Shown: positions 9,070 to 59,327, counted from the stretch's first letter. The stretch is 64,000 nt of DNA from a candidate division Zixibacteria bacterium RBG-1 (GCA_000447245.1 AUYT01000001.1:804106-868105); one strand, 5' to 3'. Numbers and translations are program-made. The notes: generated by a model not told the origin, from the sequence alone.

Positions 9070-9076
9070 CTTTAAA

Positions 9077-10450: not shown

Positions 10451-10485
10451 AAAGATTCATCTCCTTATAGTTTAAGGTCCAAATT

Positions 10486-11811: not shown

Positions 11812-11826
11812 ATTAACCCTCCTGTT

Positions 11827-15549: not shown

Positions 15550-15553
15550 ACTT

Positions 15554-16021
15554 TTAGTTTCTCTTCTTCATTTGTCGGGATATTTCTCTTTTGGCTTCTT
15601 TTTCTTTTATAGTTTTACGCTTGTCGTACAGTTTTTTACCTTTGACCAAAGCCAGCTCCAGTTTGGCGACCCCGTCTTTGAAATAGATTTTCAAAGGGAC
15701 TAAAGTTAGTCCTTTTTCCTGCACTTTCCCTATTAGACGGAAAATCTCCCGTTTATGTAATAATAATTTACGTATTCTCTCTGGCTCCACGTTGTAGCGG
15801 TTTCCCTTTTCATAGGGGCTGATGTGCATTTTGTTCAACCACAGCTCCCCGTCTTTAATGCTGGCGTAAGAATCTTTCAGATTCACTGTCCCCTCTCGCA
15901 AAGATTTTACCTCGGTTCCCTTCAAGACTAGCCCTGCTTCATAGGTCTCCAGAACAAAGTACTCATGCAACGCTTTGCGATTGGCGGCGATTACTTTTAT
16001 TTTATCGTCTGACTTTTCCAC
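15554..16021 (-). CDS. smpB: SsrA-binding protein
   Basis: 155 aa; highly conserved SmpB sequence ([17 protein letters not shown]). Confidence 0.9.
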
Positions 16022-16186
16022 TTTTTACAATATATTGTATGAAAAAAAGCAAGGCAAGGTAATTCACTTAGTAGGAAGTTTAGATTTTATAAAAATTTTG
16101 GGTTGAACTTAGGCGTGTTCTTTACAAAAAGATTTAATCTTTAAGTAGAAATAGGGGACTCAATTTAGGATATCGGTTGAATCTCG

Positions 16187-17212: not shown

Positions 17213-17415
17213 AAATAAATGGTCTTTCAGGTATCATCCCTTTATTTAATTATATCTACGCACTAAATCGTCATCTCCATATAAAAATTTATTATATACA
17301 AAAAAACCGGCATCCGTCAAGTCAAAAATTTCGATAAATTGTAATTTGAAGCTGCTTTCATAGTTTCGACTTTCTACTTGCTTGCCAATTTAAATTAAAT
17401 TATATTTTCGCTCAA

Positions 17416-17500
17416 GCCGAAGTGGTGGAATTGGCAGACACGCTGTGTTCAGGGCGCAGTGAGGTTACCCCTCGTGCGGGTTCGACTCCCGCCTTCGGCA
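17416..17500 (+). tRNA. tRNA-Leu (anticodon CAG)
   Basis: Hand-folded cloverleaf: acceptor GCCGAAG/CTTCGGC, anticodon stem CTGTG/CGCAG with loop TTCAGGG, long variable arm, T-arm CGGG-TTCGACT-CCCG. Confidence 0.8.
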
Positions 17501-17542
17501 AAAGAGAGATTGTCACTTTAACTTAATATAGCTTACAACTTA

Positions 17543-18769
17543 ATGTTAGCGCTGACCAAACCCAGACCCAAACCCAGCCACATCTGGGACAAAGGGCTTA
17601 ATCTCAAAGAGAAAAAAGAACCCCAAATTCAAAAGCCGGACGAAGTCAAAATCGAAGTTTTGGCCAGCGGAATCTGCGGCACGGATTTGGGAATCTACAA
17701 CAGCAAAGAATCAGTAAAAAAGGAGATGGCTCACGCCCAAATTGATCCTGTCACCATCGGCCATGAATTTGGCGGCAAAATAAATCAGGCCGGAGATTCG
17801 GCTTTGGAAGATTTGGGACGAATGCTGATTGAAAAACATTGGATAACTGAAACTGAAAAACGATCTTTAGGTCTGAACAATGGCAAAGTCACCAAAAAAG
17901 CCAACCTGTTAAAGTTTCTGAGCCAAAATTTCCTGGTCTCGGCTGAGATGCATCTGACCTGTCAACACTGCCGCCAGTGTATAACCGGCCAAAAACATGC
18001 CTGCCCTTATACCAGAATCAAGGGAATACACCAGGACGGTGCCTTTGCCAAATATGTGATTGTTCCTATATCTAACTTAGTTTTGTTTAGAAAAGATGAA
18101 CTGCCCATCGAAATTATTGCTTTTATGGACGCCATTGGAAACGCCATGCATACAGTTCAGGAAGGGGGAGTATTAGGGAACAATGTGGCTGTCTTGGGGT
18201 GCGGGGTGCAAGGACTTTTGGCTACCGCTGTGGCAAGAGTTTCGGGTGCCAGCAAAATTTTTGTAACCGGGGCCTCTAATCCTCTGGTGAGAGAAAGCCA
18301 AAAAAGAATGAACAAAAAATTTCTGTTGGCCAGAAAATTGGGAGCGGATTTTTGTTTTGATGTGAGTTTTAAATCTGACCGATTAAAATTTTTGGAGCAG
18401 GTGAAAAAAGAGACCAAAGGAGTAGGGATAGATTGTGTCCTGGAGATGTCCGGCAATTACCAGGCTTATCATGATGCCTTCGAGGTCATCCGTAACGGAG
18501 GGAAAATGGCTCTCTTGGGCCTGCCGGCCGGAGAGACCAAAATTGATTTTTCCAATCAGATTATTTTTCGAGGGATTACCATACAGGGAATCATCGGCAG
18601 AAAAGTTTTTTCTTCCTGGGAAACCATGACAGCCCTTTTAAAATCCGGCTTAGCCAAAAAACTTTTAGATTTGGGGTTTGTGACCCATCAGTTGGATTTG
18701 AAAAATTATGTAAAAGGGTTCAAAGCCATGCAGGCCGGGGAAGCGATTAAAGTTCTGTTAAGACCTTAA
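17543..18769 (+). CDS. tdh: zinc-dependent L-threonine 3-dehydrogenase-like (MDR family)
   Basis: 408 aa; GICGTDLGIY, GHEFGG, structural-zinc Cys cluster CQHCRQCITGQKHAC, NAD motif GCGVQG; immediately upstream of kbl; unusually long. Confidence 0.6.
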   Translation: MLALTKPRPKPSHIWDKGLNLKEKKEPQIQKPDEVKIEVLASGICGTDLGIYNSKESVKKEMAHAQIDPVTIGHEFGGKINQAGDSALEDLGRMLIEKHWITETEKRSLGLNNGKVTKKANLLKFLSQNFLVSAEMHLTCQHCRQCITGQKHACPYTRIKGIHQDGAFAKYVIVPISNLVLFRKDELPIEIIAFMDAIGNAMHTVQEGGVLGNNVAVLGCGVQGLLATAVARVSGASKIFVTGASNPLVRESQKRMNKKFLLARKLGADFCFDVSFKSDRLKFLEQVKKETKGVGIDCVLEMSGNYQAYHDAFEVIRNGGKMALLGLPAGETKIDFSNQIIFRGITIQGIIGRKVFSSWETMTALLKSGLAKKLLDLGFVTHQLDLKNYVKGFKAMQAGEAIKVLLRP

Positions 18770-18773
18770 AAGT

Positions 18774-20006
18774 TTGAATGAAATAGTTATGCAACCCATA
18801 CTAGAAATTTTAAATAAAGCTTTAGGGGATTTTAAAACCTCGAACACTTATAAATACGAAACCCCCTTAGAATCCCCCCAAGATGCGGTGGTCAAGGTCA
18901 AAGGGAAAAAAGTGGTGATGCTGGCCTCCAATAATTACCTGGGTCTGGCCTCCCATCCTAAAATCAAAAAGGCGGTCATTGACGGTGTCAGAAAATTCGG
19001 TCCGGGAATGGCTTCGGTTCGCTTTATCTGCGGCACCAATAAAGTTCATTTAGAATTAGAGAAAAGGATAGCTTCCTTTCTGAAATGTGAGGATACTATC
19101 CTGTATTTATCCTGTTTTTCCGCCAACGAAGGACTTTTTGCCGGACTTTTAAATGATAAATTGGGGTATGAAAATTACCATGACGTTCTTTACTCCGACC
19201 GACTTAATCATGCTTCTATTATAGATGGGGGGCGGTTGTGTAAAGCTGAAACTACCGAGAGAAAAATTTATGAGCACAAAGATGTGGCACATTTACAAAG
19301 ACTTTTGGAAGAGGATAAAGATAAAAATTATCGCTTCCGAATCATCGCCACTGATGGGGTTTTTTCTATGGAGGGGGATTTAGCTCCGCTGCCAGAGTTG
19401 GTTTCTTTGGCAAGAGAATATAATGCCCTGCTTGTGGTGGATGACTCCCATGCCTTGGGAGTTTTGGGTAAGACTGGTAGAGGTACTCCCGAAGAGTTAA
19501 ACGTATTAGGCCAGGTAGATATTCTCACCGGCACTTTGGGAAAGGCCATGGGAGGAGCTGTGGGTGGATTTATTTCTGGAAAAAAAGAGATTATCTCCTA
19601 CCTGAGACAAACTTCCCGGCCTTATATTTTTTCCAATTCTCTGCCACCCTGTCTGGCGTATTCAGCTATGAAAGCCTTTGAGCTTCTGCAGAAAGATAAA
19701 TCCCTGGTGAAAAAATTAAGAGATAATACTATCTATTTCAGAAAAGAGATTAAAAATTTGGGATATAAAATTATAGATGGGATTCATCCGATTGTGCCGA
19801 TTATGTTGGGTGAGGCAGCTTTGGCGCAGAATGCCAGTTTTGAATTGCTTAAAGAAGGAGTATATATCAAAGGTTTATGGTTTCCGGTAGTGCCCAGAGG
19901 AGAAGCCCGTTTAAGAGGGCAGATTTCGGCGGCTCATTCTAAAAAAGATCTGGATAAGGCACTAAACGCTTTTCAGAAAGTAGGGAAGAGGTTGAAAATT
20001 ATTTAA
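18774..20006 (+). CDS. kbl: 2-amino-3-ketobutyrate CoA ligase (glycine C-acetyltransferase)
   Basis: 410 aa; PLP-dependent class II aminotransferase fold; DDSHALG and TGTLGKAMGG (PLP lysine) motifs. Confidence 0.85.
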   Translation: MNEIVMQPILEILNKALGDFKTSNTYKYETPLESPQDAVVKVKGKKVVMLASNNYLGLASHPKIKKAVIDGVRKFGPGMASVRFICGTNKVHLELEKRIASFLKCEDTILYLSCFSANEGLFAGLLNDKLGYENYHDVLYSDRLNHASIIDGGRLCKAETTERKIYEHKDVAHLQRLLEEDKDKNYRFRIIATDGVFSMEGDLAPLPELVSLAREYNALLVVDDSHALGVLGKTGRGTPEELNVLGQVDILTGTLGKAMGGAVGGFISGKKEIISYLRQTSRPYIFSNSLPPCLAYSAMKAFELLQKDKSLVKKLRDNTIYFRKEIKNLGYKIIDGIHPIVPIMLGEAALAQNASFELLKEGVYIKGLWFPVVPRGEARLRGQISAAHSKKDLDKALNAFQKVGKRLKII

Positions 20007-20615
20007 ATGGACCGCTTCATAAATCTTTACATCCTGTTTTACCTAATCGTGGGGAATATTATATTCGGAATTGTTAACCGAAAGTTTTCCTCTGACGATG
20101 CGCCTATTATTAAAAGAGACAAAAGCTACCGGATGCTGCATACTATCCGCTTCAGCTTACTTTTTATCTGGGCAGTGGGATTTTTTCTGGCGGAGTTAAA
20201 TCAGCTTAAATTACTTCCACAAGCAGAACCAACCCGAACTTATATAAGACTTTTCGGCTTGATTTTATTTACACTAGGAGGTTTGTGGATTTTATGGTCA
20301 CGCTGGACCTTGGGGAAATGGTTTTCCACCAAGTTTGCCATCAAAAAGGGACATCAGATTATAAAGACCGGTCCTTACAAGATTATGCGGCATCCTATTT
20401 ATTTGGGAGGCACTTTAGCCATCTGGGGATTTACTCTGGCTTTGGATAGTTTGATAACTTTGCTAATTTTGGCCATCCCCATACCCATTACCTTTTATCT
20501 GAATATCAAAGCCGAAGAGAGATTATTCCTAAAAGAGATGGCTGGCGAATATCAGAAATATCAGCAAGAAGTTCCTCGCTTAATTCCCTTTCTGAAAACA
20601 AAAGCCAAAACTTAA
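20007..20615 (+). CDS. ICMT/PEMT-family membrane methyltransferase
   Basis: 202 aa, multi-TM; C-terminal motif MRHPIYLGG...EERLFLKEMAGEYQKYQQEVPRLIP typical of isoprenylcysteine carboxyl methyltransferase-like proteins. Confidence 0.65.
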   Translation: MDRFINLYILFYLIVGNIIFGIVNRKFSSDDAPIIKRDKSYRMLHTIRFSLLFIWAVGFFLAELNQLKLLPQAEPTRTYIRLFGLILFTLGGLWILWSRWTLGKWFSTKFAIKKGHQIIKTGPYKIMRHPIYLGGTLAIWGFTLALDSLITLLILAIPIPITFYLNIKAEERLFLKEMAGEYQKYQQEVPRLIPFLKTKAKT

Positions 20616-22406: not shown

Positions 22407-22946
22407 TTAAGGCGCAGTCTGAACTAAACCCGGACCGCTGAACTCAACCAGCCCGGTGCTTAATTTCTCTTCGGTGTCAAACCTAAGTACAACTTGGTCC
22501 TGGTGGTCCTTCCCTAAATCTTCGGCTTCAATCTCCAGCATCAATCCCACAAAATCGGCGGTATTGGAGACGATAATTTCCGCCATCAGTCTGATTTTGT
22601 CATTTACCTCAAAACCGGTAAGCTCAAATTCGCTGTAGAAGCTGGAATCGTCTGACTTTTGGATATGTCCGGAACCGAAACAGTTTTTCCCATTGGTTCT
22701 ATGACCTGTCACTGTCAGATAAATCGTGCCCATCTGCCCGTTGGTCAGCTGGTTGGACTCAATGGCCACATTGTTGACTTCGGCCCGTGTGGGCCCGCCC
22801 TGGGAATTGAAGATTCTGCTGGTAGAATCACATCCCAGAAGAGCAAAACTTAAAAGCAAAAGAATTCCAAATAATCCGAGGGTTTCGGCTTCGCCAATCC
22901 TGGCGGATTGGGCTTTTATCCTGTAGGGACAAATTGACTTCTGCAC
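22407..22946 (-). CDS. hypothetical lipoprotein
   Basis: 179 aa; hydrophobic leader ending in lipobox-like LLGC. Confidence 0.4.
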   Translation of the reverse strand: MQKSICPYRIKAQSARIGEAETLGLFGILLLLSFALLGCDSTSRIFNSQGGPTRAEVNNVAIESNQLTNGQMGTIYLTVTGHRTNGKNCFGSGHIQKSDDSSFYSEFELTGFEVNDKIRLMAEIIVSNTADFVGLMLEIEAEDLGKDHQDQVVLRFDTEEKLSTGLVEFSGPGLVQTAP

Positions 22947-23188: not shown

Positions 23189-25690
23189 ATGAGATGCTGT
23201 AATAGCTACAAATTAACCAGGTGGGTGGCTGTAAGTATACTAATCCTCACCTCCAGCTTTGTTCAAGCGAAATTAAAAAGCGACCAATCTAAATCAGTTC
23301 ATCAGTATCCACAAACTGCAGCCGACCCCCTGACTCAAACCAGGGTTCATAAAATCGGGAATATCTGGCTCTCGATTACGAACTTCGGCCAAATTGGAAG
23401 TGGAGGGAAAACCTATAAAGATGTATGCACCAACCAACCAGCCCCATCTTGTCAGTTTCCGGCTGGCTCGGGGATTGAATATCTTTACATAGGGGCTCTC
23501 TGGATAGGGGCAGTGATGAATGATACGGATACTTTGGTTGCGGTGGGGCATGATGGCTGGCAGAATGTGCAGGAATTTGGTCCTACGTCAACCGGGGCCA
23601 TAGTTTCGAGAACTATCCGACCTGATGGTTATCAACAAGATAACTGTTTTGTTCCCTATTCAGATTCGGCAAAGTCGGAACTGGATTATATTGCCGTGTA
23701 TTATGATACGGTAACAAGACAGGATATCCCCAGCATACCGGAAAGAGATAGACCACTAAATTTAGAGATTACCCAAAAAAGCTACAGCTGGAGTTATGAA
23801 TATGCCAATGATTTTGTACTGTTCGATTATTCAATAAAGAATATTGGGACCAATAAATTAACCAGTGTTTATATAGGATTTTATATTGATTTTGATATCT
23901 ATAATCAGAGTTTTGATGGAGGTGGTTATTTTGATGATATTGCCGGCTTTAAGTTTTCAGTGCCTTCACCCTATGATCCCCGTCTGGAAGATACAGTCAG
24001 CATTGCCTGGGGTGCGGATAATGATGGATTATCTGCTGCGCGAGTGGAAGGAGACGTTTTCCTAGACAATTTTAGCCCTACAGGAGTCCTGGGAACGAGA
24101 GTGCTTCGGTCACCAAATCCTGATTTAAAGCATTCTTTTAACTGGTGGGTTTCTAATGGAAATCCTCAGTTGGATTTTGGACCCTGGACCCAAGCCAATC
24201 TTGCCAGGCGCCCAAACTATTTCGTTCCTAATGGCCAATCCGGAACTCCGGAATCTGATCGGTCTAAATATTTCATCATGAGTAATAATGAATTTGATTA
24301 TGACCAATTGTTTGCTGCTTTACCAGAGATTTGGGAGCGACAGGGTTGGGTAAACCAGACCCAAATTTCACCCGACAATCTGGCAGATATTGCCGACGGT
24401 TTTGATAGCCGCTATCTGTTGTCTTTCGGTCCTTTCGACATTGATTCTGGTGAGGTTCTTCCGTTGACCATCGCTTTAGTGGCCGGAGAAGATTTTCATG
24501 TTAAGCCGACTGATTTTAATTCGTATAGTGCGACTGACAGTGCGGCGGTCTTTAATTTTTACAATAAGCTTGATTTTACCTCTTTAGCCGCCAATGCCCA
24601 TTGGGCTGCCTGTGTCTATGACAATCCGGGGTTTGATACTGACGGGGACGGTTATAGAGGGGAATTCCGAATAATTGCTGGTGATACAATCTATAAATGC
24701 GGGGACGGAGTTCCAGATTTTCAAGGTCCGCCTCCCCCACCTGCTCCCCAATTGAAATTTGAAACCTCCTACGGAACCGTAAAAATCAAATGGAATGGCA
24801 AAACGACTGAAAAGTTTTTTGACCAATTTACCAATCGAAGAGATTTTGAGGGTTACCGAATCTATGGCAGCTGGACTGGAATTTTGGGGGATTTTTTTCT
24901 TCTGGATTCATTTGACAAAATGAATTATAAGTTTTTCTACTGGGATAAAGGGAGAAAAAAATGGGTTTACAAGCTTACCGACTTAAGCCTGGACTCTCTT
25001 GTGACTTTGTTTAAGCCAGACGACCCTTGTGAGGGTGCAAGACCTTGCCCCTTGGAGAGCTTATCTTTTTGTTCTGACCCTGACACTTGTGACGACTGGG
25101 ATGTTGCCAGATGGAATTTATATCATCCTTATATCTATCAGGGAACCCAAATAGAAACTTTAAGGATTGCTCCCAATTTAATCATTACCAGGGGGGATTC
25201 GATTTATTTCGACAGGCAGGACTATAACAGAGGTCTATTACCAATCAAGACTTACAAAGACAGTATCTTGAATGGGAGCATTGGTTCAGATGATGACAGA
25301 TATTATGAGTATGAATATGTAATTGATAACTTGAATCCCAATGAGCCCCTTTATTTCGCAGTTACGACTTTTGATTTCGGAGATCCAATAACACGTTTGA
25401 CCCCTTTGGAAACCAGTGTTCTGGCTAATTCTAAATTAGTTTATCCCCGAGTTTGTCTGGCTAAACCGGGGGATGTTAATGAAGATGGGGAGGTTCTGTT
25501 ATCGGACGTGATAGCTATGATTAATATCCGTTTTACATGGTGGCCCCCTCGTCCCATTCATACCTGCAGAATGGACATGAATGGTGATGGGTGGGAACTA
25601 TTTGCAGATATAATCTATCTGGTTAATTACCTATTTAAAGGTGGCCCAAAGCCACAGGTTGTTGAAGAGTGTTGTTTGGTAGGTAATTGA
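23189..25690 (+). CDS. large secreted hypothetical protein with C-terminal dockerin-like tandem repeats
   Basis: 833 aa; signal peptide; C-terminus GDVNEDGEVLLSDVIAMIN...MDMNGDGWELFADIIYLVNYLFKGGPKP...CCLVGN resembles duplicated dockerin Ca-binding loops (DxNxDGxxxxxD). Confidence 0.55.
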   Translation: MRCCNSYKLTRWVAVSILILTSSFVQAKLKSDQSKSVHQYPQTAADPLTQTRVHKIGNIWLSITNFGQIGSGGKTYKDVCTNQPAPSCQFPAGSGIEYLYIGALWIGAVMNDTDTLVAVGHDGWQNVQEFGPTSTGAIVSRTIRPDGYQQDNCFVPYSDSAKSELDYIAVYYDTVTRQDIPSIPERDRPLNLEITQKSYSWSYEYANDFVLFDYSIKNIGTNKLTSVYIGFYIDFDIYNQSFDGGGYFDDIAGFKFSVPSPYDPRLEDTVSIAWGADNDGLSAARVEGDVFLDNFSPTGVLGTRVLRSPNPDLKHSFNWWVSNGNPQLDFGPWTQANLARRPNYFVPNGQSGTPESDRSKYFIMSNNEFDYDQLFAALPEIWERQGWVNQTQISPDNLADIADGFDSRYLLSFGPFDIDSGEVLPLTIALVAGEDFHVKPTDFNSYSATDSAAVFNFYNKLDFTSLAANAHWAACVYDNPGFDTDGDGYRGEFRIIAGDTIYKCGDGVPDFQGPPPPPAPQLKFETSYGTVKIKWNGKTTEKFFDQFTNRRDFEGYRIYGSWTGILGDFFLLDSFDKMNYKFFYWDKGRKKWVYKLTDLSLDSLVTLFKPDDPCEGARPCPLESLSFCSDPDTCDDWDVARWNLYHPYIYQGTQIETLRIAPNLIITRGDSIYFDRQDYNRGLLPIKTYKDSILNGSIGSDDDRYYEYEYVIDNLNPNEPLYFAVTTFDFGDPITRLTPLETSVLANSKLVYPRVCLAKPGDVNEDGEVLLSDVIAMINIRFTWWPPRPIHTCRMDMNGDGWELFADIIYLVNYLFKGGPKPQVVEECCLVGN

Positions 25691-38026: not shown

Positions 38027-39985
38027 TCAGGCACACCCCAGAAGAGGGGCTGTGCCGCTTTTGAAAACATAATTCACCAGATAAACAATATCTGCTAAAT
38101 TCACCGAACAATTCGCATTGGGATCTCCCAAAAACAGGGGGTTCGGTGCTGGTCCCCCTTTGAAAACAAAGTTCACCAGCCAAATAATGTCCGTCAAATT
38201 AATTCCCCCATCTGAATTGGCATCCCCGGCTAGGTAAGGAAAGGTCTTCAAACTATCCAAGGGAGACAAAATCCAATAGTTGGGGTCAAAGGTAATGGAA
38301 GTGGGATCACCGGTTACCAGGAAGAAAAAAGTCTGGTCTCTTTGGTTGTTTTGCAATGTGACGATTGTATCACCGGAGGTGGTGGAAACCTTGAATTCTA
38401 GCGGCATGGTATAAACTGAGGGGGTGGTCTGTTTCTGGCTGATGTTGAGATGAACCCTGGAGTTTCCTCCCACAGGGGTCTCAGCCCAGCTCCAGTTGTA
38501 TCTGGGAAAATTGGGGCTATAGACCCACTCATTGAAAAACCAATCCAAATCCTGTCCGGAGTAATTTTCCATTGAGGTTTGAAATTGCTGAGTATTGGCA
38601 GTGCTGTATTTATAGGTCTGTCCGTAATCCGCCATCCCGTTAAAGAACAAACTGTCGCCCAGTATGTATCTCAACATATGCAGAACCCAGGAGCCCTTGT
38701 CGTAGACCGCAGTTGAAAACCAGTAGTTGGAAGGTGGATTGTAAATCGGATAATGGACTGAGCCGTTGGGTAGCTGGTAAGAAGATTTAACGGCGTTTTC
38801 TTGCCCCGCTAACTGTGAATTTTTGGCTGATAGACCGTATTCATATTCCATCCACAAGACCTCGCAGTAGCTGGCAAACCCTTCGTTGAGCCAGATGTTG
38901 GGAAAGTCATTGCAGGTGACCATATCCCCCCACCACTGGTGGCCCAGCTCATGGGCATTCACCCATTCGTAAACAGCATTGCCGGGCATGGGAAATCCCC
39001 AGGAGGTGTTGGTCTGATGCTCCATAGCACCACCCAATTCTGCCTGCACGTTGGAGTATTTTTCACCCATAAAAGGATAAGGGACCCAGATAGAGGAGAA
39101 AAACTCAATCATCTCCGGAGTTTTTCGAAAATCCACCACTGCCGCAGCCGAATCCTCGTGATAAACCCAATAATGAACCGGCAGGGTGTCGTTGTTTACC
39201 ACCGCAAAAGAATCAATTCGGGCAAAATCACAGACCGTCAAAGAGATTAAATAAGTCACTATCGGATAATCTTCTTTCCAGTGATATGTCACTGTGGTAT
39301 CTGGATTGTTGGTAACTGAGAGAAGAGTTCCATTAGCTACCGCATAATTTCCTGCTGGAGCAGTGCAGATAATTTCTGAATAAGCTTTGTCGTTGGGAAA
39401 ATCAAAACAGGGAAACCAATAACGAGAGCCGTAAGGTTCGGTGAAGGAATAATAAATGGGAGTGCCGTAGGCATTGGCATCAAAATAAAATCCGCCACTC
39501 GGGTTTCCATGATAAAAAACTTCCACATTAAAAGAATCCCCGGGATTGTAGGGAACATCCAGGTCCACGGTCAATTTGGTGCTGGTTCTGGAAAAGGTGG
39601 TGCTGGAAAAATTGACCTTGCAGGAATCCACCGTCATACCCACAAAGTCTAAGACCAGGCTGGCCAGAAGGGAAATTTCCGACTTGGCGTGAATGGTCAC
39701 ATGCCCCCGGAATCTGTTGGTCAGGTCCGTGGGAACCAACCTGACATCTAAAATATATTTGGTAACGTCATAATCATGGGAGCTGTCGGCCGGCAGGGCT
39801 GGGGGAAAGGATTTTCCGAAGTGTAAAGATTTCCCCTCCTCCACCAGATTAGACTCCGGATCGCCTGCCGGGGAACCTGCTTGAGATTTGGGGACATAGG
39901 CAAATGCGGTAACAGTCAAGACCAGCAGGCAAATCAAAAAAATTAGACTTATAGCTTTGTTAGAGAATCTTTTTCCACCAGACAC
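38027..39985 (-). CDS. M1 family aminopeptidase (aminopeptidase N-like) with C-terminal dockerin-like module
   Basis: 652 aa; signal peptide; gluzincin motif HELGHQWWG...NEGFASY; C-terminus GDANSDGGINLTDIIWLVNFVFKGG...GDPNANCSVNLADIVYLVNYVFKSG...LLGCA. Confidence 0.8.
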   Translation of the reverse strand: MSGGKRFSNKAISLIFLICLLVLTVTAFAYVPKSQAGSPAGDPESNLVEEGKSLHFGKSFPPALPADSSHDYDVTKYILDVRLVPTDLTNRFRGHVTIHAKSEISLLASLVLDFVGMTVDSCKVNFSSTTFSRTSTKLTVDLDVPYNPGDSFNVEVFYHGNPSGGFYFDANAYGTPIYYSFTEPYGSRYWFPCFDFPNDKAYSEIICTAPAGNYAVANGTLLSVTNNPDTTVTYHWKEDYPIVTYLISLTVCDFARIDSFAVVNNDTLPVHYWVYHEDSAAAVVDFRKTPEMIEFFSSIWVPYPFMGEKYSNVQAELGGAMEHQTNTSWGFPMPGNAVYEWVNAHELGHQWWGDMVTCNDFPNIWLNEGFASYCEVLWMEYEYGLSAKNSQLAGQENAVKSSYQLPNGSVHYPIYNPPSNYWFSTAVYDKGSWVLHMLRYILGDSLFFNGMADYGQTYKYSTANTQQFQTSMENYSGQDLDWFFNEWVYSPNFPRYNWSWAETPVGGNSRVHLNISQKQTTPSVYTMPLEFKVSTTSGDTIVTLQNNQRDQTFFFLVTGDPTSITFDPNYWILSPLDSLKTFPYLAGDANSDGGINLTDIIWLVNFVFKGGPAPNPLFLGDPNANCSVNLADIVYLVNYVFKSGTAPLLGCA

Positions 39986-40327
39986 ACAGGCCTCCTTAAA
40001 GTCTAAGTAAGACTCATGCAGGTTTATTGAAAAGCACGCTCATGACCGTTATAAATATAAGCTAATTTATCCTTTTTGTAAAGGGAGAATTTTGGGTGAA
40101 ATTATGAATTAAAATGCAAGAAAATGCTGATATTTGCTCAAAAAACTTGCTTTTAAAAATCCATGGGGCATCTTTCATCAAGTTATTTTTGAATCGGGTC
40201 AATTTCCAGAGCCGAAGATACGTAGAAAATTAAACAAGAGTTTCGACAGAACCTATCATAAATGGTTCGACTCGTTCCCCCGATGAATCGGGGTCAGAGT
40301 AAACGAAGCTCACTAAAAGGAGGAGCA

Positions 40328-41176
40328 ATGAGAAGTTCGGTGAAGTGGCTGACGGTAATATTGGGCGTTTCTGCTTTTGGTGCGGCGACCGCCTCGGAGA
40401 AGATTTCCTGGAAAAAGATTGACGAGGCCTTAAGCTTAGCCAAAAGCCAGAATAAGAAATTATTAATCGATTTTTATTCCCCCACCTGAGGGGCCTGCAT
40501 AAAAATGGACAAAGAAACTTACTCGGATGACCGGGTGGTGGTTCTGTCCAAAGATTTCATCTTCGTCAAAGTCAACACCAAAGAAGATACCTTAACTAAA
40601 AAGCAATATCAAGTATTCGCCACTCCGACTGCGCTTATGGCCAATGCGGACGGGCAGGAGATAGACCGGGTGGTAGGTTTTCATCCCACCGAACAGTTTT
40701 TACCCATCATCAAAGATTACCAGAAAGGGAAAAATACTTTAGGTGATCTGGAGAAGAAAGCCGGCAAAAATCCCAAAGACGTAAAACTTTTGTACACTTT
40801 GGGGGACAAATATCAATGGCGAGGCGGTAATGAAAAAGCTGTGGAGATGTTTAACAAAGTGGTAGAGTTAGACCCGGAAAATAAATCCGGCAAAGCGGAC
40901 TCTTCGGCTTTTAATCTGGCTTACCTGAAATATCGCCAGAAAGATTATCAGAGTGCCATTGCTGATTTTGAAATGTTCAAGACCGAGTATACCAATCCCA
41001 ATCTGGTGGGTGATGCCCAGATTTACATCGCGGCCTCTTACGAAAAGTCAGATAACAAAGCCGAAGCTCTGAAACAGTACCAGAAATATCTGGAGATGTA
41101 TCCGGAGGGTGAAAACGCCGATTACGCCAAGGAGCAGATTGAAAAACTGACCCAGAAAGCGGAAAAGGCAGAATAA
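40328..41176 (+). CDS. exported thioredoxin-fold (DUF255/Thioredoxin_7-like) + TPR protein with in-frame TGA at the first Cys of the CxxC motif; candidate selenoprotein
   Basis: ATG 40328 preceded by AAAAGGAGG; signal peptide; ORFs 40262..40489 and 40505..41176 are in one frame, separated only by TGA 40487-40489; joined reading ...KKLLIDFYSPT[TGA]GACIKMDKETYSDDRVVVLSKDFIFVKV... aligns with the LLIDFYADWCGxCKxMDKE thioredoxin-like pattern. Confidence 0.5.
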
Positions 41177-43445: not shown

Positions 43446-44171
43446 ATGAAAATAGTAAGAATCGCTTTACCCTGTATTTTTTTGATTCTTCTCTCTTTTT
43501 TAATCCTGACTGCTCATCCGAATTTTACCGGATATTCAGGGGCACCGGGCTGTAAAGGAACCTGCGCCTCATCCTGTCACGGTTTTGCGGGGGGAACTAT
43601 CTCAGTCAGCGGTTTTCCCAGCACCTATACTCCAGGACAAATCTATACTCTAAAGGTGAGTCATTCTGCCGGAGGAAGCATTGCCAATTTTAACGCTTCA
43701 GTCCGAATTGTAACAGACAGCAGCAATGCCGGAGTTTTATCAGCAGGACAGAGCACCGTTACCTACAATACAACCGGGGAGACCAATGGAATGCATTTTT
43801 CCAATGCCGATCAGGATAGTGGCACGTTTTCCTGGACTGCGCCGGATACTTCAGTAGGTGAAGTACGTCTTTATTTAGCCGGACATCAAGGGACTACCCC
43901 GGATGATCCCAACACTGAACTGGTATTGAGCGCCACCTCGGGGGTTTGTCTGGCGAAAGCCGGAGATGTCACCGGAGATGGCACCATTCTTTTGCCCGAC
44001 ATTATAGCCATAATAAATTTTCTATTTAGAGCCGGACCAACCCCCACCCCGCTCTGCCGGGGGGACGCCAACGGCAATGGAACTATTTTACTTCCGGATG
44101 TAATTTACTTAATCAATTTCCTGTTTAGGGCCGGCCCAGCCCCGGTTAAAACAGGGGTCTGTTGCCTGTAA
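43446..44171 (+). CDS. small secreted protein with C-terminal dockerin-like tandem repeats
   Basis: 241 aa; signal peptide; C-terminus GDVTGDGTILLPDIIAIINFLFRAGPTP...GDANGNGTILLPDVIYLINFLFRAGPAP...VCCL. Confidence 0.55.
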   Translation: MKIVRIALPCIFLILLSFLILTAHPNFTGYSGAPGCKGTCASSCHGFAGGTISVSGFPSTYTPGQIYTLKVSHSAGGSIANFNASVRIVTDSSNAGVLSAGQSTVTYNTTGETNGMHFSNADQDSGTFSWTAPDTSVGEVRLYLAGHQGTTPDDPNTELVLSATSGVCLAKAGDVTGDGTILLPDIIAIINFLFRAGPTPTPLCRGDANGNGTILLPDVIYLINFLFRAGPAPVKTGVCCL

Positions 44172-53172: not shown

Positions 53173-54720
53173 ATGAGAAACAAAGTTGTGTTAGCAGTGG
53201 TATTTTTATTATGGATGGGACTTGCTTGGGCAGATACTCCCCAGCTGATTAATTTTCAGGGTCGACTGACTGATTCTTTGGGAAACCCTGTGAGTAATGG
53301 TGCCTATAGTTTACGCTTCAGAATCTACGATGATTCTTTGGCTGGTAATATTTTGTGGGAAGAGACCGACCCGGTTCAGGTAAAATCTGGACTTTTTACG
53401 GTGCTTCTGGGTTCAACTAATTCAATTCCGGATAGCGCTTTTTATTCTGCTAATCGCTGGTTAGGAATAAAAATCGGTACAAACCCTGAAATTACACCCA
53501 GACAGAGATTGGCTTCCGTGGGTTACAGCTATGTTTCTTCCCAATGGAACTCGGCTGACTCGAATCTCTATCGGATAAAGGGAAAAGTCGGCATTGGAAC
53601 TTCCACTCCCACCTTCGCAAAGCTGGAGGTCGTCGCCTCCAGTGGCATCGGCGTTTTCGCTTCGGGCAGCCCTGGCGTTTACGGCACCAGCTCATCAGGC
53701 ACTGGTGTTTTTGGCGAGGGTTCCTTGTACGGCCTTTACGGCAACAGCAACGGCACTGGAGTTTTCGGCACGGGCCCCCAGTACGGCGTTCACGGTGATG
53801 GGTACAACGGCACGGGCGTTTACGGCGAGGGCGACACGGCTGGCGTTAGCGGCCAAAGTATATCAGGCACTGGCGTTCGCGCCTTATCATATAACGGCCC
53901 CGGTGTTGTCGCTTCGGGTAGCACGTACGGCGTTTCCGGCACAAGCACCGGAGGCACTGGCGTTAGAGGCATTAGCGGCAGCGGCTATGGCGTTTATGCC
54001 TCGGGCGGCCCGAACGGCGTTGTCGCTTATGCAACTAATTCTGGCGGCTCGGCTGTTTACGGCTCGGGCGTCACGTATGGTGTTTACGGTGTGGCAAGCG
54101 CCAACAACGGCTCCGGTGTTTATGGTTCAAACGGCGGGAATCCCTCGACATATGCCGGCTACTTCGTCGGAACCGTTTACGTGGCCGGTGACTTTTATGC
54201 TGTAGGAACAACCAAAAGCGCCGCCGTGAAAGTCAACAACGGCGAATATCGGGTGCTTTATGCGCAGGAATCCCCCGAAAACTGGTTTGAGGATTTCGGC
54301 ACGGCCCAGTTGGTGAATGGCCAAGCCACTGTGAATATCGATCCCCTCTATGCCCAAACGGTAAATACGGCAGTAACCTATTACGTCTTCTTGACTCCGG
54401 AAGGGGATTGTCAGGGACTTTTCGTTACCGGCAAGACCCCGGCCTGTTTTGAGGTGCGGGAACTGCAAAACGGGAAATCCAACCTGTCGGTGAGTTATCG
54501 AATCGTGGCCAAAAGGAAGGGCTATGAAAACGTCCGCCTGCCCAAACTGCCCGGCCTAACTCCGGAAGAGGTTCAAGCCAAAGACGTCAAGCTCCGGGCC
54601 GAGATGGCCAAAGAAAACGCTGGGCACCTAGAGGAACAAGCCCGAATGGAGCAGGAACGTAAGAAAATGGAAGAAGAGCGCACCAAAATGGAGCAAGAAT
54701 GTTTGCTTCCCAAGCGGTAA
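53173..54720 (+). CDS. secreted glycine-rich repeat protein with GC-rich repetitive core and C-terminal coiled-coil
   Basis: 515 aa; signal peptide; about 20 tandem G-x-GV(Y/F)G-like repeats encoded by locally GC-rich DNA (53600-54200); C-terminal globular region and charged tail EEQARMEQERKKMEEERTKMEQE. Confidence 0.5.
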   Translation: MRNKVVLAVVFLLWMGLAWADTPQLINFQGRLTDSLGNPVSNGAYSLRFRIYDDSLAGNILWEETDPVQVKSGLFTVLLGSTNSIPDSAFYSANRWLGIKIGTNPEITPRQRLASVGYSYVSSQWNSADSNLYRIKGKVGIGTSTPTFAKLEVVASSGIGVFASGSPGVYGTSSSGTGVFGEGSLYGLYGNSNGTGVFGTGPQYGVHGDGYNGTGVYGEGDTAGVSGQSISGTGVRALSYNGPGVVASGSTYGVSGTSTGGTGVRGISGSGYGVYASGGPNGVVAYATNSGGSAVYGSGVTYGVYGVASANNGSGVYGSNGGNPSTYAGYFVGTVYVAGDFYAVGTTKSAAVKVNNGEYRVLYAQESPENWFEDFGTAQLVNGQATVNIDPLYAQTVNTAVTYYVFLTPEGDCQGLFVTGKTPACFEVRELQNGKSNLSVSYRIVAKRKGYENVRLPKLPGLTPEEVQAKDVKLRAEMAKENAGHLEEQARMEQERKKMEEERTKMEQECLLPKR

Positions 54721-55987: not shown

Positions 55988-57040
55988 ATGGTGGTCTCTC
56001 TGATGTCGGTGGTTTTATTGTTGGGTATTAGCTGGCTGGTTTCAGGTTGTGGCGGTGAAGGGCAAACCGAATCTTTGAAAGAGGCAGTTTATGGCTCCCC
56101 GGAAGCTCAAATTTCAATGGAGAAACCGACTACTTCTGAACTGTATTCGGGAGCGGCTTTGAGCATTGCGCCGGAAGTAAACCCAGTACCCAATGCCAAA
56201 GTCCATGAGGTCCGTTTGGACGTGACCCATAGCGAAATTCAGGTAACCGAAGGGGTGAAATTCGTAGCCTGGACTTTTGGTGGAACTTTACCAGGTCCGG
56301 TATTGCACGTTCGTCAAGGAGACCGAGTTAGATTTACCATGACTAATCGGTCTGACCAAACCGTATCCTTTTCACCGCCCACTCCACATTCCATCGATTT
56401 CCATGCCGCCATGGTCAATCCGGCTGACAAATATAGAGAAGTCATTCCCGGAGCCACCATCAAATTTGAATGGGTAGCCAATTATCCCGGTGTATTTATG
56501 TATCACTGCGGCTCTCCCGCAATTTTACAACATATGATTTATGGCATGATTGGGATGACCATTGTGGAGCCGAAAAATGGTTACCCCACCAAGGTAGACC
56601 GGGAATTTGCTTTAGTACAAAGCGAGTTATACTTAACTAAAATGAAAAGCGGTATGTATCTGGTGGATATGGAAGCCGCCAAACAAAAGAAAGCCACCTA
56701 TGTAACTTTTAATGGAATTCCCAAACAGTATGTCGACAAGCCCTTACAAGCTAAACCCGGTGAAAGAGTCAGAATATATATACTAAATGCGGGACCAAAC
56801 GGAACTTCCAGTTTCCATGTGGTGGGTACTTTATTCGATAAAGCCTGGTTTGATGGAAATCCACAAAATGAGCAAAGAGGGTTACAGACTGTAATTTTAG
56901 GTTCCAGCAACGGCGCTATTGTTGAATTTGTTATCCCGGAAGCGGGAACTTATACTTTTGTGGACCATGAATTTGCGGATGTAGAGTTAGGAGCAGTCGG
57001 ACAAATAGTGGCTAAAAGTGAGGCGATAGCCAGTAAGTAA
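55988..57040 (+). CDS. nirK: copper-containing nitrite reductase (NO-forming)
   Basis: 350 aa; lipoprotein-type leader (LVSGC); type-1/type-2 Cu ligand contexts HSIDFHAA and YHCGSPAILQHMIYGM (Cys-x8-His-x4-Met); C-terminal HVVG and FVDHEF regions parallel known NirK. Confidence 0.85.
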   Translation: MVVSLMSVVLLLGISWLVSGCGGEGQTESLKEAVYGSPEAQISMEKPTTSELYSGAALSIAPEVNPVPNAKVHEVRLDVTHSEIQVTEGVKFVAWTFGGTLPGPVLHVRQGDRVRFTMTNRSDQTVSFSPPTPHSIDFHAAMVNPADKYREVIPGATIKFEWVANYPGVFMYHCGSPAILQHMIYGMIGMTIVEPKNGYPTKVDREFALVQSELYLTKMKSGMYLVDMEAAKQKKATYVTFNGIPKQYVDKPLQAKPGERVRIYILNAGPNGTSSFHVVGTLFDKAWFDGNPQNEQRGLQTVILGSSNGAIVEFVIPEAGTYTFVDHEFADVELGAVGQIVAKSEAIASK

Positions 57041-57054
57041 AACAGGTTAAACCG

Positions 57055-57612
57055 ATGCGCAAATTTAGTTCCATATTTATATTAATGATCTTACCATGTC
57101 TGGTGTGGGGAAATACCTCCCTAAACGCTCCTCCTAAACAGGTTAGGAGTTTTTCCCCAGGAACCAAGGGCACAGTACTGATATTTGTTTCCAGTCTGTG
57201 CCCTTGTACTGATGCCCACAGGATTATGGTGGAAAATTTAATGACTAGAATGCCAGCCAGTGGATTCAAATTTTATGCGGTGTTCTCCAATAAAGGGGAA
57301 ACTACCGAACTGATAGAGTATTTCTATCGGACCATTGGCTGGCAGATGCCTTATATTTTGGATAGTAGCGGAACTTTGCAAAAAAAATATAAAGCCACCC
57401 ATACCCCTCAAGCCTTTGTGATAAGTCCTCAAAATAAAGTGCTTTATAGAGGACCAATCGACGACAGTAACTTAAATCAGGGACGAGTAGATAATCCTTA
57501 TTTAAAAAATGCTTTAGAGGATCTTTTGGCAGGAAGAGCTGTTAAAGCTTCTGAGGTGGCTGGGACCGGCTGCTGGATTGTTAGAAGTATTTCTTCAAAA
57601 GAACTGAAATAG
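57055..57612 (+). CDS. thioredoxin-fold protein (SCO/TlpA-like), exported
   Basis: 185 aa; signal peptide; Cys motif VSSLCPCTDAH in a thioredoxin-like context. Confidence 0.45.
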   Translation: MRKFSSIFILMILPCLVWGNTSLNAPPKQVRSFSPGTKGTVLIFVSSLCPCTDAHRIMVENLMTRMPASGFKFYAVFSNKGETTELIEYFYRTIGWQMPYILDSSGTLQKKYKATHTPQAFVISPQNKVLYRGPIDDSNLNQGRVDNPYLKNALEDLLAGRAVKASEVAGTGCWIVRSISSKELK

Positions 57613-57733
57613 AACCCGAGATGAATATAAAGCAGATTAAAACCTTAAAGATTGTGAAAAAAATCACAAAAAAAGGTAAAAAAACCTAGGTCAATTTAGA
57701 AAGTAAAAACTGTTGATAAAGAGAGGCTTGAAA

Positions 57734-58246
57734 ATGAAAAACTCAATGAAAACAATAGCTGGTTTAGCCATTGTTCTGGGATTCTTGATATTATCCGGAT
57801 GTAGTAAAAATACAAAAGTAATCTCCGGTCCCTCAAATCCTTTTGTTCTTTCAGTTCAACCAACTAATGGAGCCGTTAATGTCCCAATTTCATCTTCAGT
57901 GCAGATAATTTTCGCCTCTCCTATGGATACTCTTTCAGTAGCTCAAAACTTCTGCTTGATAGGAGGAGAGATGATGTATCAAGTGATGGATTCTTTGGAG
58001 CATGCTATGATGGATTATTCAGAGATGATGGAGTGGATGCATTCAGAGTCTTTTACTGGACAGTTTCAATGGAATTCAAAAAGAGATTCTTGTCTATTTT
58101 TACCAGATTCCAGCCTGATTCATCATACCGAATACATGATTTATATGGGAAGGAATATGGAGAGTAGGCATCGTGATATGATGATGGAACACCGAGAGAT
58201 GATGGGAGAAGATTTTATAACTCATTTTACAACCGAGGATAACTAA
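57734..58246 (+). CDS. Met/His-rich periplasmic lipoprotein (putative Cu(I)-binding)
   Basis: ORF 57713..58246; likely ATG 57734 (AGAGAGG RBS); lipobox LSGC; Met-rich stretches MMYQVMDSLEHAMMDYSEMMEWMH and HRDMMMEHREMMGED. Confidence 0.5.
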   Translation: MKNSMKTIAGLAIVLGFLILSGCSKNTKVISGPSNPFVLSVQPTNGAVNVPISSSVQIIFASPMDTLSVAQNFCLIGGEMMYQVMDSLEHAMMDYSEMMEWMHSESFTGQFQWNSKRDSCLFLPDSSLIHHTEYMIYMGRNMESRHRDMMMEHREMMGEDFITHFTTEDN

Positions 58247-58404
58247 CTCTTAGAAGAAGGAGGAAAAATGAAAAGAGTGTTAAAACTTTTATAGATTTAG
58301 AATTAACTGTCAAGAGTAATATTTTTTTCTTGACAAATTAATTCTGCTGGATGATATTTAGAGAAGTTAAAAAAAATTGAAACAAGGACGGGGAAGGAGG
58401 ACGA

Positions 58405-59319
58405 ATGAAAAAGAAAAATAAAGTTTGGGTAGGTCTGGGGGTACTCTATCTGGTTGTTTTTCTATTGTGTTGGGGAACGATAACTTCCAGAAGTCAAGAA
58501 ACTTCTGCTGGAGCTACCTATGTCGGCTCCGAGTTGTGCTTAACCTGCCACCAGGATCTTTTGGCAACCTACGAACACACCATCCATTACAAAATCGCCC
58601 AGGATCCCAGAAATGAACTGGAGCAAAAAGGGTGTGAATCCTGCCATGGTCCAGGAAGTATGCACACTGAAGACCCTAGTAATGTGAAAATTCCAGTTTC
58701 TTTTGCTAAAAAGACAAAAACTCCGGTAAAAGATCAGAATGAAGCCTGCTTACAATGTCATGAAAAAACCCACTTGAACTGGTCGGGTAGCATCCATGAC
58801 TCCAGAGAGTTAGCTTGTGCCACTTGCCATCATATTAAAGAAAATCTTACAGATAGATTTCTGTTGGCTAAGGCTAACCAGTCGGATTTATGTGGCTCCT
58901 GCCATAGGGCTCAAAAAGCCAAAACCATGAAGGCCTATCACATGACGGTAAGGGATGGAAAATTAGAATGCACTTCTTGTCATAATCCTCATGGAACTAA
59001 TACAGATAAGCTGTTAGTGGAGAACTCAGTCAATGAAACCTGCTATAAATGTCACGCTGAAAAAAGAGGCCCTTTTTTGTGGCCGCATCCTCCGGTGACG
59101 GAGAATTGTCTGAATTGTCATGACCCCCACGGCTCTAACCATAACAAGATGTTGCTTACCAAAGTGCGCCGGATCTGTCAGAGGTGCCATGTTGAAACCA
59201 GGCATCCCACCACCCCTCAGACTGCCAATAACCTTTATCTCATCAACCATGCCTGTGCTAACTGCCATTCTCAAATTCATGGTTCTAACCACCCCTCTGG
59301 GGTAAGATTTCTCAGATAG
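58405..59319 (+). CDS. decaheme c-type cytochrome (MtrA/DmsE/PioA-like)
   Basis: 304 aa; signal peptide; ten CxxCH motifs (CLTCH, CESCH, CLQCH, CATCH, CGSCH, CTSCH, CYKCH, CLNCH, CQRCH, CANCH); RBS GGAAGGAGG. Confidence 0.85.
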   Translation: MKKKNKVWVGLGVLYLVVFLLCWGTITSRSQETSAGATYVGSELCLTCHQDLLATYEHTIHYKIAQDPRNELEQKGCESCHGPGSMHTEDPSNVKIPVSFAKKTKTPVKDQNEACLQCHEKTHLNWSGSIHDSRELACATCHHIKENLTDRFLLAKANQSDLCGSCHRAQKAKTMKAYHMTVRDGKLECTSCHNPHGTNTDKLLVENSVNETCYKCHAEKRGPFLWPHPPVTENCLNCHDPHGSNHNKMLLTKVRRICQRCHVETRHPTTPQTANNLYLINHACANCHSQIHGSNHPSGVRFLR

Positions 59320-59327
59320 GAGGAAAA

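Follow-up and report, generated by a model that had tools for sequence, protein, structure and literature searches.

In a stretch of 64,000 nucleotides (nt) from the candidate division Zixibacteria bacterium RBG-1, here called the window, the gene at positions 38027-39985 on the minus strand encodes a metallopeptidase of the M1 family with a type-I-like dockerin at its C terminus. On balance, we incline to the view that the protein is a Sec-exported M1 zinc aminopeptidase, whose dockerin would dock on a cohesin partner outside the cytoplasm. A first-pass annotation of the window had named an M1 enzyme from the motifs HELGHQWWG and NEGFASY and had ascribed to it a dockerin-like C-terminal module. 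Both motifs are present and both Pfam M1 domains score above cutoff, and the module is borne out by its conservation among orthologues, by profile matches in the PDB, by its AlphaFold2 (AF2) model and by Foldseek, as detailed below.

The Dockerin Tail

The gene and its parts, all on the minus strand, are the following, where pLDDT is the predicted local distance difference test score of an AF2 model.

38027-39985, minus: complete gene for an M1 metallopeptidase with dockerin tail (list of open reading frames, Pfam, orthologues, AF2 pLDDT 91.1)
39991-39997, minus: AAGGAGG as Shine-Dalgarno sequence, 5 nt ahead of the start codon GTG (direct sequence reading)
39899-39985, minus: predicted signal peptide, residues 1-29 (MSGGKRFSNKAISLIFLICLLVLTVTAFA, followed by Y; rule of hydrophobicity and charge)
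39161-39772, minus: M1 N-terminal beta domain, residues 72-275 (Pfam, AF2 pLDDT ~97, Foldseek matches to ERAP1, IRAP and 6koy)
38525-39160, minus: thermolysin-like catalytic domain, residues 276-487 (Pfam 1.3e-29, invariant residues, match to 6a8z and 6iff)
38288-38500, minus: small beta-sandwich, residues 496-566, corresponding to M1 domain III (AF2 pLDDT ~95, Foldseek)
38030-38227, minus: C-terminal type-I-like dockerin, residues 587-652 (motif scan, profile against the PDB, AF2, Foldseek)

The tail consists of a duplicated unit of loop and helix. The first repeat reads D588-A-N-S-D-G-G-I-N-L-T-D599 and is followed by a helix at residues 597-609, while the second reads D621-P-N-A-N-C626-S-V-N-L-A-D632 and is followed by a helix at 630-642. 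The Ca ligands, at loop positions 1, 3, 5 and 12, are D588, N590, D592 and D599 in the first loop and D621, N623, N625 and D632 in the second. The tail is kept in 21 M1 orthologues with 46-80% identity, among which G587, D588, D599, D621, C626, D632 and C651 are invariant, and this pattern points to purifying selection on the tail over the whole range of divergence.

When a profile of 16 tails is compared with the PDB, only dockerins come out on top (8x39 at 6e-9, 2ccl at 2.5e-7, then 3ul4 and 1ohz, down to 1e-4). Matches to generic EF-hand proteins all have E>0.1, and a chance EF-hand-like match is rejected on these grounds. The predicted fold leads to the same family. A tail-only AF2 model from 79 sequences has a pLDDT of 94.2, and its best 33 PDB matches in Foldseek are all dockerins, with probabilities of 0.75-1.00. 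The template-modelling (TM) scores are 0.51-0.85 against targets with a single dockerin and 0.40-0.44 against the double dockerins 8x39 and 8x3a, with root-mean-square deviations (rmsd) of 1.4-3.6 Å; for the 2ccl dockerin, the TM score is 0.85 and the rmsd 1.4 Å. Several M1 orthologues carry PF00404 in precomputed annotation, and Pfam Dockerin_1 is matched by 85 of the 85 scanned members of the tail subfamily, with 1.5e-64 as the best value. Judged from homology and modelled structure, the tail of the M1 protein is a true homologue of type I dockerins with a Ca-binding fold.

The M1 Core and Its Export Signal

Pfam places Peptidase_M1_N at residues 77-246 (1.8e-17, 64.5 bits) and Peptidase_M1 at residues 342-487 (1.3e-29, 103.8 bits). 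The zinc signature HELGH-x18-E occupies residues 345-368 (nt 38882-38953), with HELGH at 345-349 and E368 inside NEGFASY. The catalytic Tyr428 (nt 38702-38704), the residue that in M1 enzymes stabilises the transition state, stands in the context VYDKG, where both Y428 and K430 are invariant. No change is seen at H345, E346, H349, E368, E322 or Y428, either in 22 orthologues or in 77 homologues. At residues 319-323 (nt 39017-39031), the catalytic domain reads GAMEH and not GAMEN. In the exopeptidase motif GXMEN, the Glu contacts the alpha-amino group of the substrate. The replacement of its final Asn by His is shared by 21 of the 22 orthologues and by 70 of 72 homologues from GTDB representatives, with the Glu (E322) kept. 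Aminopeptidase chemistry is plausible with GAMEH, and the enzyme is predicted to be catalytically competent.

The full-length AF2 model, made from 77 homologues, has a pLDDT of 91.1 and a predicted TM score of 0.86, and it contains the three-helix tail. Foldseek matches it to ERAP1, IRAP and 6koy with E values of 1e-33 to 1e-37, and the alignments with ERAP1 and IRAP extend over ~620 columns. No helical domain IV, or cap, follows the beta-sandwich in the model, and the protein has 652 amino acids (aa) as compared with roughly 870 for enzymes of the PepN type. Orthology with PepN or LTA4H is rejected, as TIGR02412, TIGR02414 and TIGR02411 reach 83.5, 59.5 and 75.8 bits in relation to cutoffs of 591, 718 and 762. 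The protein is a member of the M1 family, and within it of a short subfamily of the Fibrobacteres-Chlorobi-Bacteroidetes (FCB) group that has GAMEH and lacks domain IV.

The open reading frame (ORF) of 652 aa starts with GTG at 39985 and ends with the stop codon at 38027-38029. The Shine-Dalgarno sequence in front of this GTG supports the long N terminus with its charged n-region. A promoter-like TTTACA-17-TATATT, which is a match to consensus only, lies upstream at 40082-40054 on the minus strand. Signal peptides are called by a crude rule of hydrophobicity and charge. For the M1 protein the hydrophobic 12-mer scores 3.43, three Lys or Arg residues come ahead of it, a cleavage-type site is found between AFA and Y, and there is no lipobox in the signal peptide. 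All aligned M1 orthologues have a hydrophobic segment at the N terminus, and AF2 puts a helix at residues 7-27. An ORF of 103 aa at 38939-39250 on the plus strand, antisense within the M1 gene, is most likely spurious.

One metagenomic protein (P0001) is 100% identical to the M1 protein, and orthologues of ~645 aa with 46-80% identity occur in metagenomes and metagenome-assembled genomes (MAGs). The three orthologues that have a source name are all labelled candidate division Zixibacteria, and the gene is probably Zixibacterial. GCA_040961595.1 and GCA_964399055.1 are assemblies of this lineage with M1 orthologues of 74% and 64% identity.

A Dockerin Subfamily with Covarying Cysteines

In 215 unique tails of the subfamily, conservation reaches 88-100% at the Ca positions 1, 3, 5 and 12 of each loop, and both helices bear D-[VI]-[VI]-Y-L-[IV]-N-Y-[LV]-F-K-G-G-P-x-P, so that the repeat motif of the subfamily is YLINYLFKGGPxP. 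A Cys at position 4 or 6 of loop 2 covaries with a second Cys among the final few residues of the protein: 165 tails have both, 16 have neither and 34 have one only. Most of the 34 follow an alternative pattern with an even number of Cys, and the same pattern is seen in the other two dockerin tails of the window. By the repeat motif and by the Cys pair between loop 2 and the C terminus, the tail is assigned to a distinct dockerin subfamily. Covarying Cys pairs imply disulfides, and disulfides imply folding outside the cytoplasm; in the M1 protein, a disulfide between Cys626 and Cys651 probably ties the C terminus to Ca-loop 2.

The subfamily comprises 61,260 clusters at E<=0.001 and 19,616 at E<=1e-10 in a search of 1.84 billion representatives. 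Related tail fragments in NCBI-derived records go under the name "dockerin type I repeat-containing protein" and are mostly from Zixibacteria. The search for homologues of the tail returned almost only short fragments from contig ends, and the domain census is taken from the representative search with a Pfam scan. A motif scan of 147 of the 150 top-scoring tail proteins finds the module at a position that is not C-terminal in 94 of the 147. It directly follows the signal peptide in P0146 and in the ORF at 510-1670 of locus L058, and in P0241 the tail profile matches 12 stretches, consistent with a tandem array. Since the module occurs also in N-terminal, internal and tandem positions, it is a modular domain and not merely a terminal signal. 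Other proteins that bear it contain LVIVD and SBBP beta-propellers, FG-GAP, PKD, Big_9 and subtilase domains.

Cohesins Joined to the Same Subfamily

Cohesin domains are found by Pfam in 8 of 85 high-scoring tail-bearing representatives (best E 1.6e-15), and when five cohesin-bearing representatives are scanned singly, four exceed the gathering cutoff. With a custom hidden Markov model (HMM), at least 25 of the 150 best-scoring tail-bearing proteins show cohesin-like domains. An unverified CipA cohesin sequence, used as a jackhmmer query, found none among the 150 tail-bearing proteins, and Pfam-verified cohesins were taken in its place. To exemplify the architectures, P0289 has the order dockerin, cohesin, dockerin, cohesin, dockerin, and P0297, P0309 and P0323 have a signal peptide, a cohesin-like domain, Big_9 repeats, two dockerins and a cohesin. 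The dockerins of the latter three share the signature DVNADC...GC with the M1 tail. Proteins in which this dockerin alternates with cohesins could polymerise with themselves.

With a profile of these cohesins, five proteins are found in the database, and two of them are labelled Zixibacteria: P0392, with a dockerin end (FIFRGGPTPREGC) followed by a cohesin, and P0394, which is annotated as a cohesin domain-containing protein. As far as domain matches tell, cohesins matched to this dockerin subfamily exist, they are probably present in the Zixibacteria phylum, and cohesin-mediated tethering of the M1 enzyme is plausible.

Exchange with the Type IX Sorting Domain

The M1 alignment was scanned against GTDB species representatives, where the best match is 41% identical and the lineage of the window is not among the 80 loci kept. 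The C termini of 72 M1 homologues from these representatives comprise 51 type-A sorting domains of the type IX secretion system (T9SS), 14 dockerins and 7 ends that are neither. T9SS tails occur in Marinimicrobia, Ignavibacteria, Calditrichia, Eisenbacteria, KSB1, Gemmatimonadota, Fibrobacteraceae, Bacteroidota and others, and the 14 dockerin tails in Zixibacteria, in some bins labelled Ignavibacteria and in unclassified bins; Zixibacteria have both tail types. By parsimony, at least five changes between dockerin and T9SS tails are needed on a neighbour-joining tree of the M1 core, which is a rough one. From the T9SS tails of its homologues, the M1 family is read as acting at or beyond the outer membrane, and the two kinds of tail are read as alternative devices for targeting or anchoring, not as one and the same device.

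The possibility that the tail itself is a T9SS C-terminal domain (PF18962/TIGR04183) is rejected: there is no HMM match, the tail is helical, and NCBIfam finds none. The T9SS type-A domain is a beta-sandwich of ~80 residues whose last strand resembles K-x-x-L-L-K. An HMM of the T9SS domain, built from 26 T9SS-tailed M1 homologues, matches no ORF in the window or in loci L001-L004 of its closest relatives, a set with 10 non-redundant dockerin tails in all. The genome with a 64% identical, dockerin-tailed M1 orthologue also encodes a protein with matches to Por_Secre_tail, FlgD_ig and CHU_C, so that both tags coexist there.

Proposed Mechanism and Its Alternatives

The signal peptide, the covarying Cys pairs and the T9SS domains in most homologues of the FCB type together favour an extracytoplasmic site for the M1 enzyme. 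We propose that the protein would be exported by Sec and cleaved after AFA29, and that its tail would then fold oxidatively and be loaded with Ca2+ outside the cytoplasm. The loaded tail would dock in a Ca-dependent manner on a cohesin of an adaptor or scaffold like the Zixibacteria-like metagenomic proteins, with their signal peptide, cohesin-like domain, Ig repeats, two dockerins and cohesin. The M1 enzyme would in this way be part of a cell-associated or extracellular assembly, where it would trim N-terminal residues off peptides. In this scheme we infer the disulfide, the way through the outer membrane, which partner is bound and where, and the range of substrates.

Several observations weigh against it. 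On residues 586-640 of the M1 protein itself, Pfam Dockerin_1 (PF00404) scores 18.7 bits (E=0.002), which is under the gathering cutoff of 22.9 bits. No cohesin is found in the 64-kb window, by Pfam on the larger ORFs and by the custom cohesin HMM, nor in ~108 kb of close relatives, and in 1.26 Mb around M1 homologues there is none except weak matches in one unrelated locus; PDB sequence searches with the 179-aa, 833-aa and 241-aa proteins of the window, described below, also give no cohesin. The Zixibacteria labels of the cohesin fragments P0392 and P0394 derive from MAG binning. No outer-membrane secretion pathway for dockerin-tagged proteins was identified. Strict aminopeptidase specificity is an assumption, as GAMEH stands for GAMEN and domain IV is absent. 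The alternation of the tail with a T9SS sorting signal in the M1 family fits a sorting tag as well, and so does the position of the module no more than 12 aa from the C terminus in 42 of the 42 complete tail-bearing ORFs of the 1.26 Mb of loci, where a Cys is nearly always found in the last few residues. The first-pass proposal of surface display or complex assembly stands in part: an extracytoplasmic site is favoured and cohesins are fused to the tail subfamily, but no cohesin was found in the window or in the neighbourhoods covered.

The absence of cohesins near any dockerin gene examined would be expected if the tail binds a target that is not a cohesin (a glycan of the cell envelope, lipopolysaccharide, an S-layer, the surface of a mineral or polymer, or other copies of itself) and serves as a Ca-dependent module for adhesion or stabilisation with no scaffoldin. 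The great abundance of the subfamily, with its 61,260 cluster representatives, and its tandem arrays, which in P0241 reach 12 matched stretches and set it apart from classical cellulosomal enzymes, point the same way. According to a review (PMC5244752, citing Peer et al. 2009), cohesins and dockerins outside cellulosomes occur in all domains of life and have an unknown function, and an adhesin role for non-cellulosomal dockerins has been proposed by others (PMC10066038). We nevertheless regard such a target as unlikely, for cohesins fused to this subfamily in many proteins, together with the Zixibacteria-labelled MAG fragments, are the signature of a cohesin-dockerin network, and the same strongly conserved motif on both helices is what one protein partner and a dual binding mode would lead one to expect. 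A smaller probability still is given to the tail as a C-terminal sorting or secretion tag, read and perhaps removed by dedicated machinery like a T9SS domain. This would agree with the C-terminal module and terminal Cys of the 42 complete ORFs, with the at least five switches between dockerin and T9SS type-A domains at the ends of M1 homologues, with the lack of any T9SS-domain ORF where the 10 dockerin tails are found, and with the dockerin genes that adjoin an exosortase gene in locus L001. It agrees poorly with a module that also follows signal peptides, is internal or tandem and is not C-terminal in 94 of 147 cases, with its alternation with cohesins in single polypeptides, and with the Zixibacterial genome in which a dockerin-tailed M1 enzyme and a T9SS-type-tailed protein coexist; clostridial dockerins, moreover, are mostly C-terminal too. 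The first-pass annotation had itself set a generic, cleaved secretion signal against its own interpretation, and such a signal is unlikely for a module that appears to be a folded Ca-binding domain, found also in internal, N-terminal and tandem positions.

The enzyme could also stay in the periplasm together with the M16 and M24 peptidases described below and process imported or turnover peptides there, with a periplasmic dockerin interaction and no surface display. Only Sec signals are demonstrated, no outer-membrane translocation system is seen in the window, and in diderm bacteria disulfide formation takes place in the periplasm. Most M1 homologues, however, are T9SS cargo and as such exported past the outer membrane, and the LVIVD and SBBP beta-propellers, FG-GAP, PKD, Big_9 and subtilase domains that share the tail are of typical surface or extracellular types, so that we consider a purely periplasmic enzyme very improbable.

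Docking of the exported M1 enzyme on a cohesin, which we thus prefer, can be extended to a much more tentative scheme, which we think is rather unlikely to hold as a whole. Zixibacteria and some related uncultured lineages of the FCB group would have a non-cellulosomal cohesin-dockerin network on a diderm envelope, where disulfide-stapled dockerins would tag exported M1 peptidases, beta-propellers and a CxxCH protein. These would dock on self-assembling adaptors of cohesins and dockerins, the network would partly replace the T9SS anchoring of sister phyla, and the M1 enzyme would be a subunit of an extracellular protein-degrading assembly. If the tail docks on cohesins, uncultured sediment Zixibacteria would use assembly in the style of cellulosomes for the degradation of protein and not of polysaccharide, possibly with other extracellular functions included, on an envelope of the Gram-negative type, and this would bear on the mobilisation of buried organic nitrogen. 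The repeated exchange of dockerin and T9SS tails on one core is a natural experiment on the evolution of surface targeting. The gene itself is an ordinary modular exoenzyme gene: its architecture of M1 plus Dockerin_1 is common in public data already, and records derived from NCBI give M1 relatives the name "M1 family metallopeptidase".

Relation to Known Systems

The best solved sequence relative is the two-domain M1 enzyme of Deinococcus radiodurans (6a8z, 6iff, 6koy), with 7e-37 over residues 43-494 at ~27% identity, and with a TM score of 0.86 (normalised to the target) and an rmsd of 2.9 Å in Foldseek. The N domain and the catalytic domain are common to both proteins, and the C-terminal helical cap seen in PepN, ERAP and LTA4H is missing from both, but the protein of the window has in addition a signal peptide, a domain-III-like beta-sandwich and the dockerin, and its GAMEH is a motif that is not seen in the aligned segment of 6a8z. 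With the four-domain M1 enzymes (E. coli PepN, ERAP1/2, IRAP, APN) it has in common HEXXH-x18-E, the Glu of GXMEN, the catalytic Tyr and the fold of domains I-III, and it differs from them by the absent domain IV and by GAMEH in place of GAMEN. The T9SS cargo enzymes of the FCB group, with Por_Secre_tail or FlgD_ig, belong to the same short G[GA]MEH subfamily. They are 35-43% identical and have the same domain order up to the beta-sandwich, after which they end in a C-terminal sorting domain that is a beta-sandwich, where the protein of the window has an alpha-helical, Ca-binding dockerin.

The tail shares with the type I dockerins of clostridial cellulosomes (Xyn10B 1ohz/2ccl, Cel48S 2mte) the duplication of a 22-residue loop-helix unit with Ca positions 1, 3, 5 and 12, the fold, the C-terminal place on an enzyme and the internal two-fold symmetry. 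It differs from them by the YLINYLFKGGPxP repeats, by the covarying Cys pair and by a diderm host of the FCB group. The cargoes differ as well, in that they are peptidases, beta-propellers and a CxxCH protein here and glycoside hydrolases in the clostridial type I systems. Peptidases with dockerins are known from Firmicutes: the serine protease Clo1313_0689 of C. thermocellum has a double dockerin (8x39), which is the top PDB match of the M1 tail both by sequence profile and by fold, and R. flavefaciens has a papain-like module (PMC3573020). Compared with these, the M1 enzyme is a metallopeptidase and not of a serine or cysteine clan, it has a single and not a double dockerin, and it comes from another phylum with another envelope. 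No paper that mentions both Zixibacteria and dockerins was found in the literature that was searched, searches for dockerins in other candidate phyla gave nothing relevant, and such phyla are not covered by a genomic survey of cellulosome-displaying bacteria.

Other Dockerin-Tailed Genes

Two further genes of the window end in the same module.

25445-25687, plus: same dockerin module at the C terminus of an 833-aa exported protein, gene 23189-25690 (motif scan, Pfam)
43938-44168, plus: same module in a variant with four Cys at the C terminus of a 241-aa exported protein, gene 43446-44171 (motif scan, Pfam)

The 833-aa protein (23189-25690, plus) has no further Pfam family and no PDB sequence match, and its gene is divergently adjoined by that of a 179-aa lipoprotein (22407-22946, minus) without Pfam or PDB matches. 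The 241-aa protein (43446-44171, plus) contains CASSCH, a CxxCH of the haem-c type, and its tail reads VCLAK...PLCRGD...GVCCL; this redox protein may be addressed by the same tag as the M1 peptidase.

On the closest long contigs, the M1 gene is also flanked by genes for LVIVD-repeat proteins with the same tail. This is illustrated by locus L001, with a 74% identical M1 orthologue, where four dockerin-tailed genes form a run at 7551-20039 (LVIVD/CarboxypepD_reg, M1 and two LVIVD). A fifth lies ~7 kb upstream at the edge of the locus (2-439), and after the run come an exosortase (EpsH) gene and a gene for a VWA protein with a faint IPTL-CTERM match. These additional genes are absent in the window between the M1 gene and the sigma-70-region-4-like gene. 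In another Zixibacteria MAG, two M1 paralogues occur in tandem.

The Peptidase Neighbourhood

The first-pass annotation had also described four M16 peptidases and one M24 peptidase in the window, all of which Pfam confirms.

1855-4899, minus: first M16 pair, 33 kb from the M1 gene, with HLLEH in 3358-4899 and no HxxEH in 1855-3327 (Pfam, motif check)
9077-11811, minus: second M16 pair, with HLFEH in 10486-11811 and no HxxEH in 9077-10450 (Pfam, motif check)
6301-7551, plus: M24 peptidase with TTG start and signal-peptide-like N terminus (Pfam Peptidase_M24 7.5e-38)

Signal peptides had been ascribed to all six peptidases, and all six do have signal-peptide-like N termini by the rule given above, including both subunits of both M16 pairs. 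The M16 and M24 enzymes are predicted from these N termini to be at least periplasmic, and they may be periplasmic. They have no dockerin tail and no match to a T9SS domain, and the earlier picture of several tethered extracellular peptidases is not supported, as only the M1 enzyme among the six carries the tail.

The peptidase-rich neighbourhood is probably a chance juxtaposition and not a functional locus that includes the M1 gene. The M1 gene is 26 kb away from the M16/M24 cluster (1855-11811). In the interval, which holds housekeeping genes, are SmpB, MurI, PrmC, Ham1, a cation-efflux gene, a Tdh-like/Kbl-like pair, the Suf operon, DinB and a C-N hydrolase. In relatives, no M16 or M24 gene is found within +/-10 kb of the M1 gene, and the housekeeping neighbours are kept, in the conserved order thioredoxin/TPR, M1, sigma-70-region-4-like, Amidohydro_3, C-N hydrolase, DinB and Suf operon. 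The four M16 genes, furthermore, form two pairs of an active and an inactive member and therefore encode at most two enzymes. With an assumed background of 3%, P is ~0.004 for a count of six peptidase genes in the 47 ORFs that have 150 aa or more, but when four independent loci are counted instead, P is ~0.06, which is marginal. On the other side stand two M16 pairs and an M24 gene, all with signal peptides, inside 10 kb, which is a real local cluster, and the fact that Amidase_3, Amidohydro_3 and the M1 enzyme are three more exported hydrolases in the same 64 kb. The strong enrichment claimed at first is overstated, and the M1 gene is not physically linked to the M16/M24 cluster. The peptide-scavenging lifestyle suggested at first is likewise not sustained, as 64 kb are insufficient for such a deduction and the clustering is modest.

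The thioredoxin/TPR gene, at 40328-41176 on the plus strand and divergent from the M1 gene, is apparently one gene with a TGA at 40487-40489. A 53-codon ORF (signal peptide ... LIDFYSPT) is in frame with a 223-aa thioredoxin/TPR ORF, with the TGA and five codons between them. The TGA falls on the first Cys of the thioredoxin CxxC motif (T-U-G-A-C), and it is kept with its flanks in three relatives (SPT*GAC, SPT*KSC and SPT*KWC, where the asterisk is the TGA). The product is a candidate exported thioredoxin-like selenocysteine protein. A selenocysteine insertion sequence-like structure is not supported, as the 60 nt after the TGA do not fold significantly better than shuffled sequences (z = -0.65).

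Other Genes in the Window

The genes at 55988-61538 on the plus strand encode a multicopper oxidase, a thioredoxin-like protein, a Big_5 lipoprotein, a multihaem cytochrome (58405-59319) and an MtrB/PioB outer-membrane porin (59328-61538, plus; Pfam 7.7e-93), and they resemble an MtrAB/PioAB-like porin-cytochrome module for extracellular electron transfer. The gene at 53173-54720 on the plus strand encodes a 515-aa exported protein with long Gly-rich repeats (GTGV[YF]G / SG.GV), no Pfam match and a charged, coiled-coil-like segment at its C terminus (EEQARMEQERKKMEEERTKMEQE). At 171-1788 on the minus strand, a gene for a homologue of deoxyhypusine synthase (Pfam DS, 6.5e-94) adjoins one for a pyruvoyl-dependent arginine decarboxylase, and the two are a polyamine-related pair that is uncommon in bacteria.

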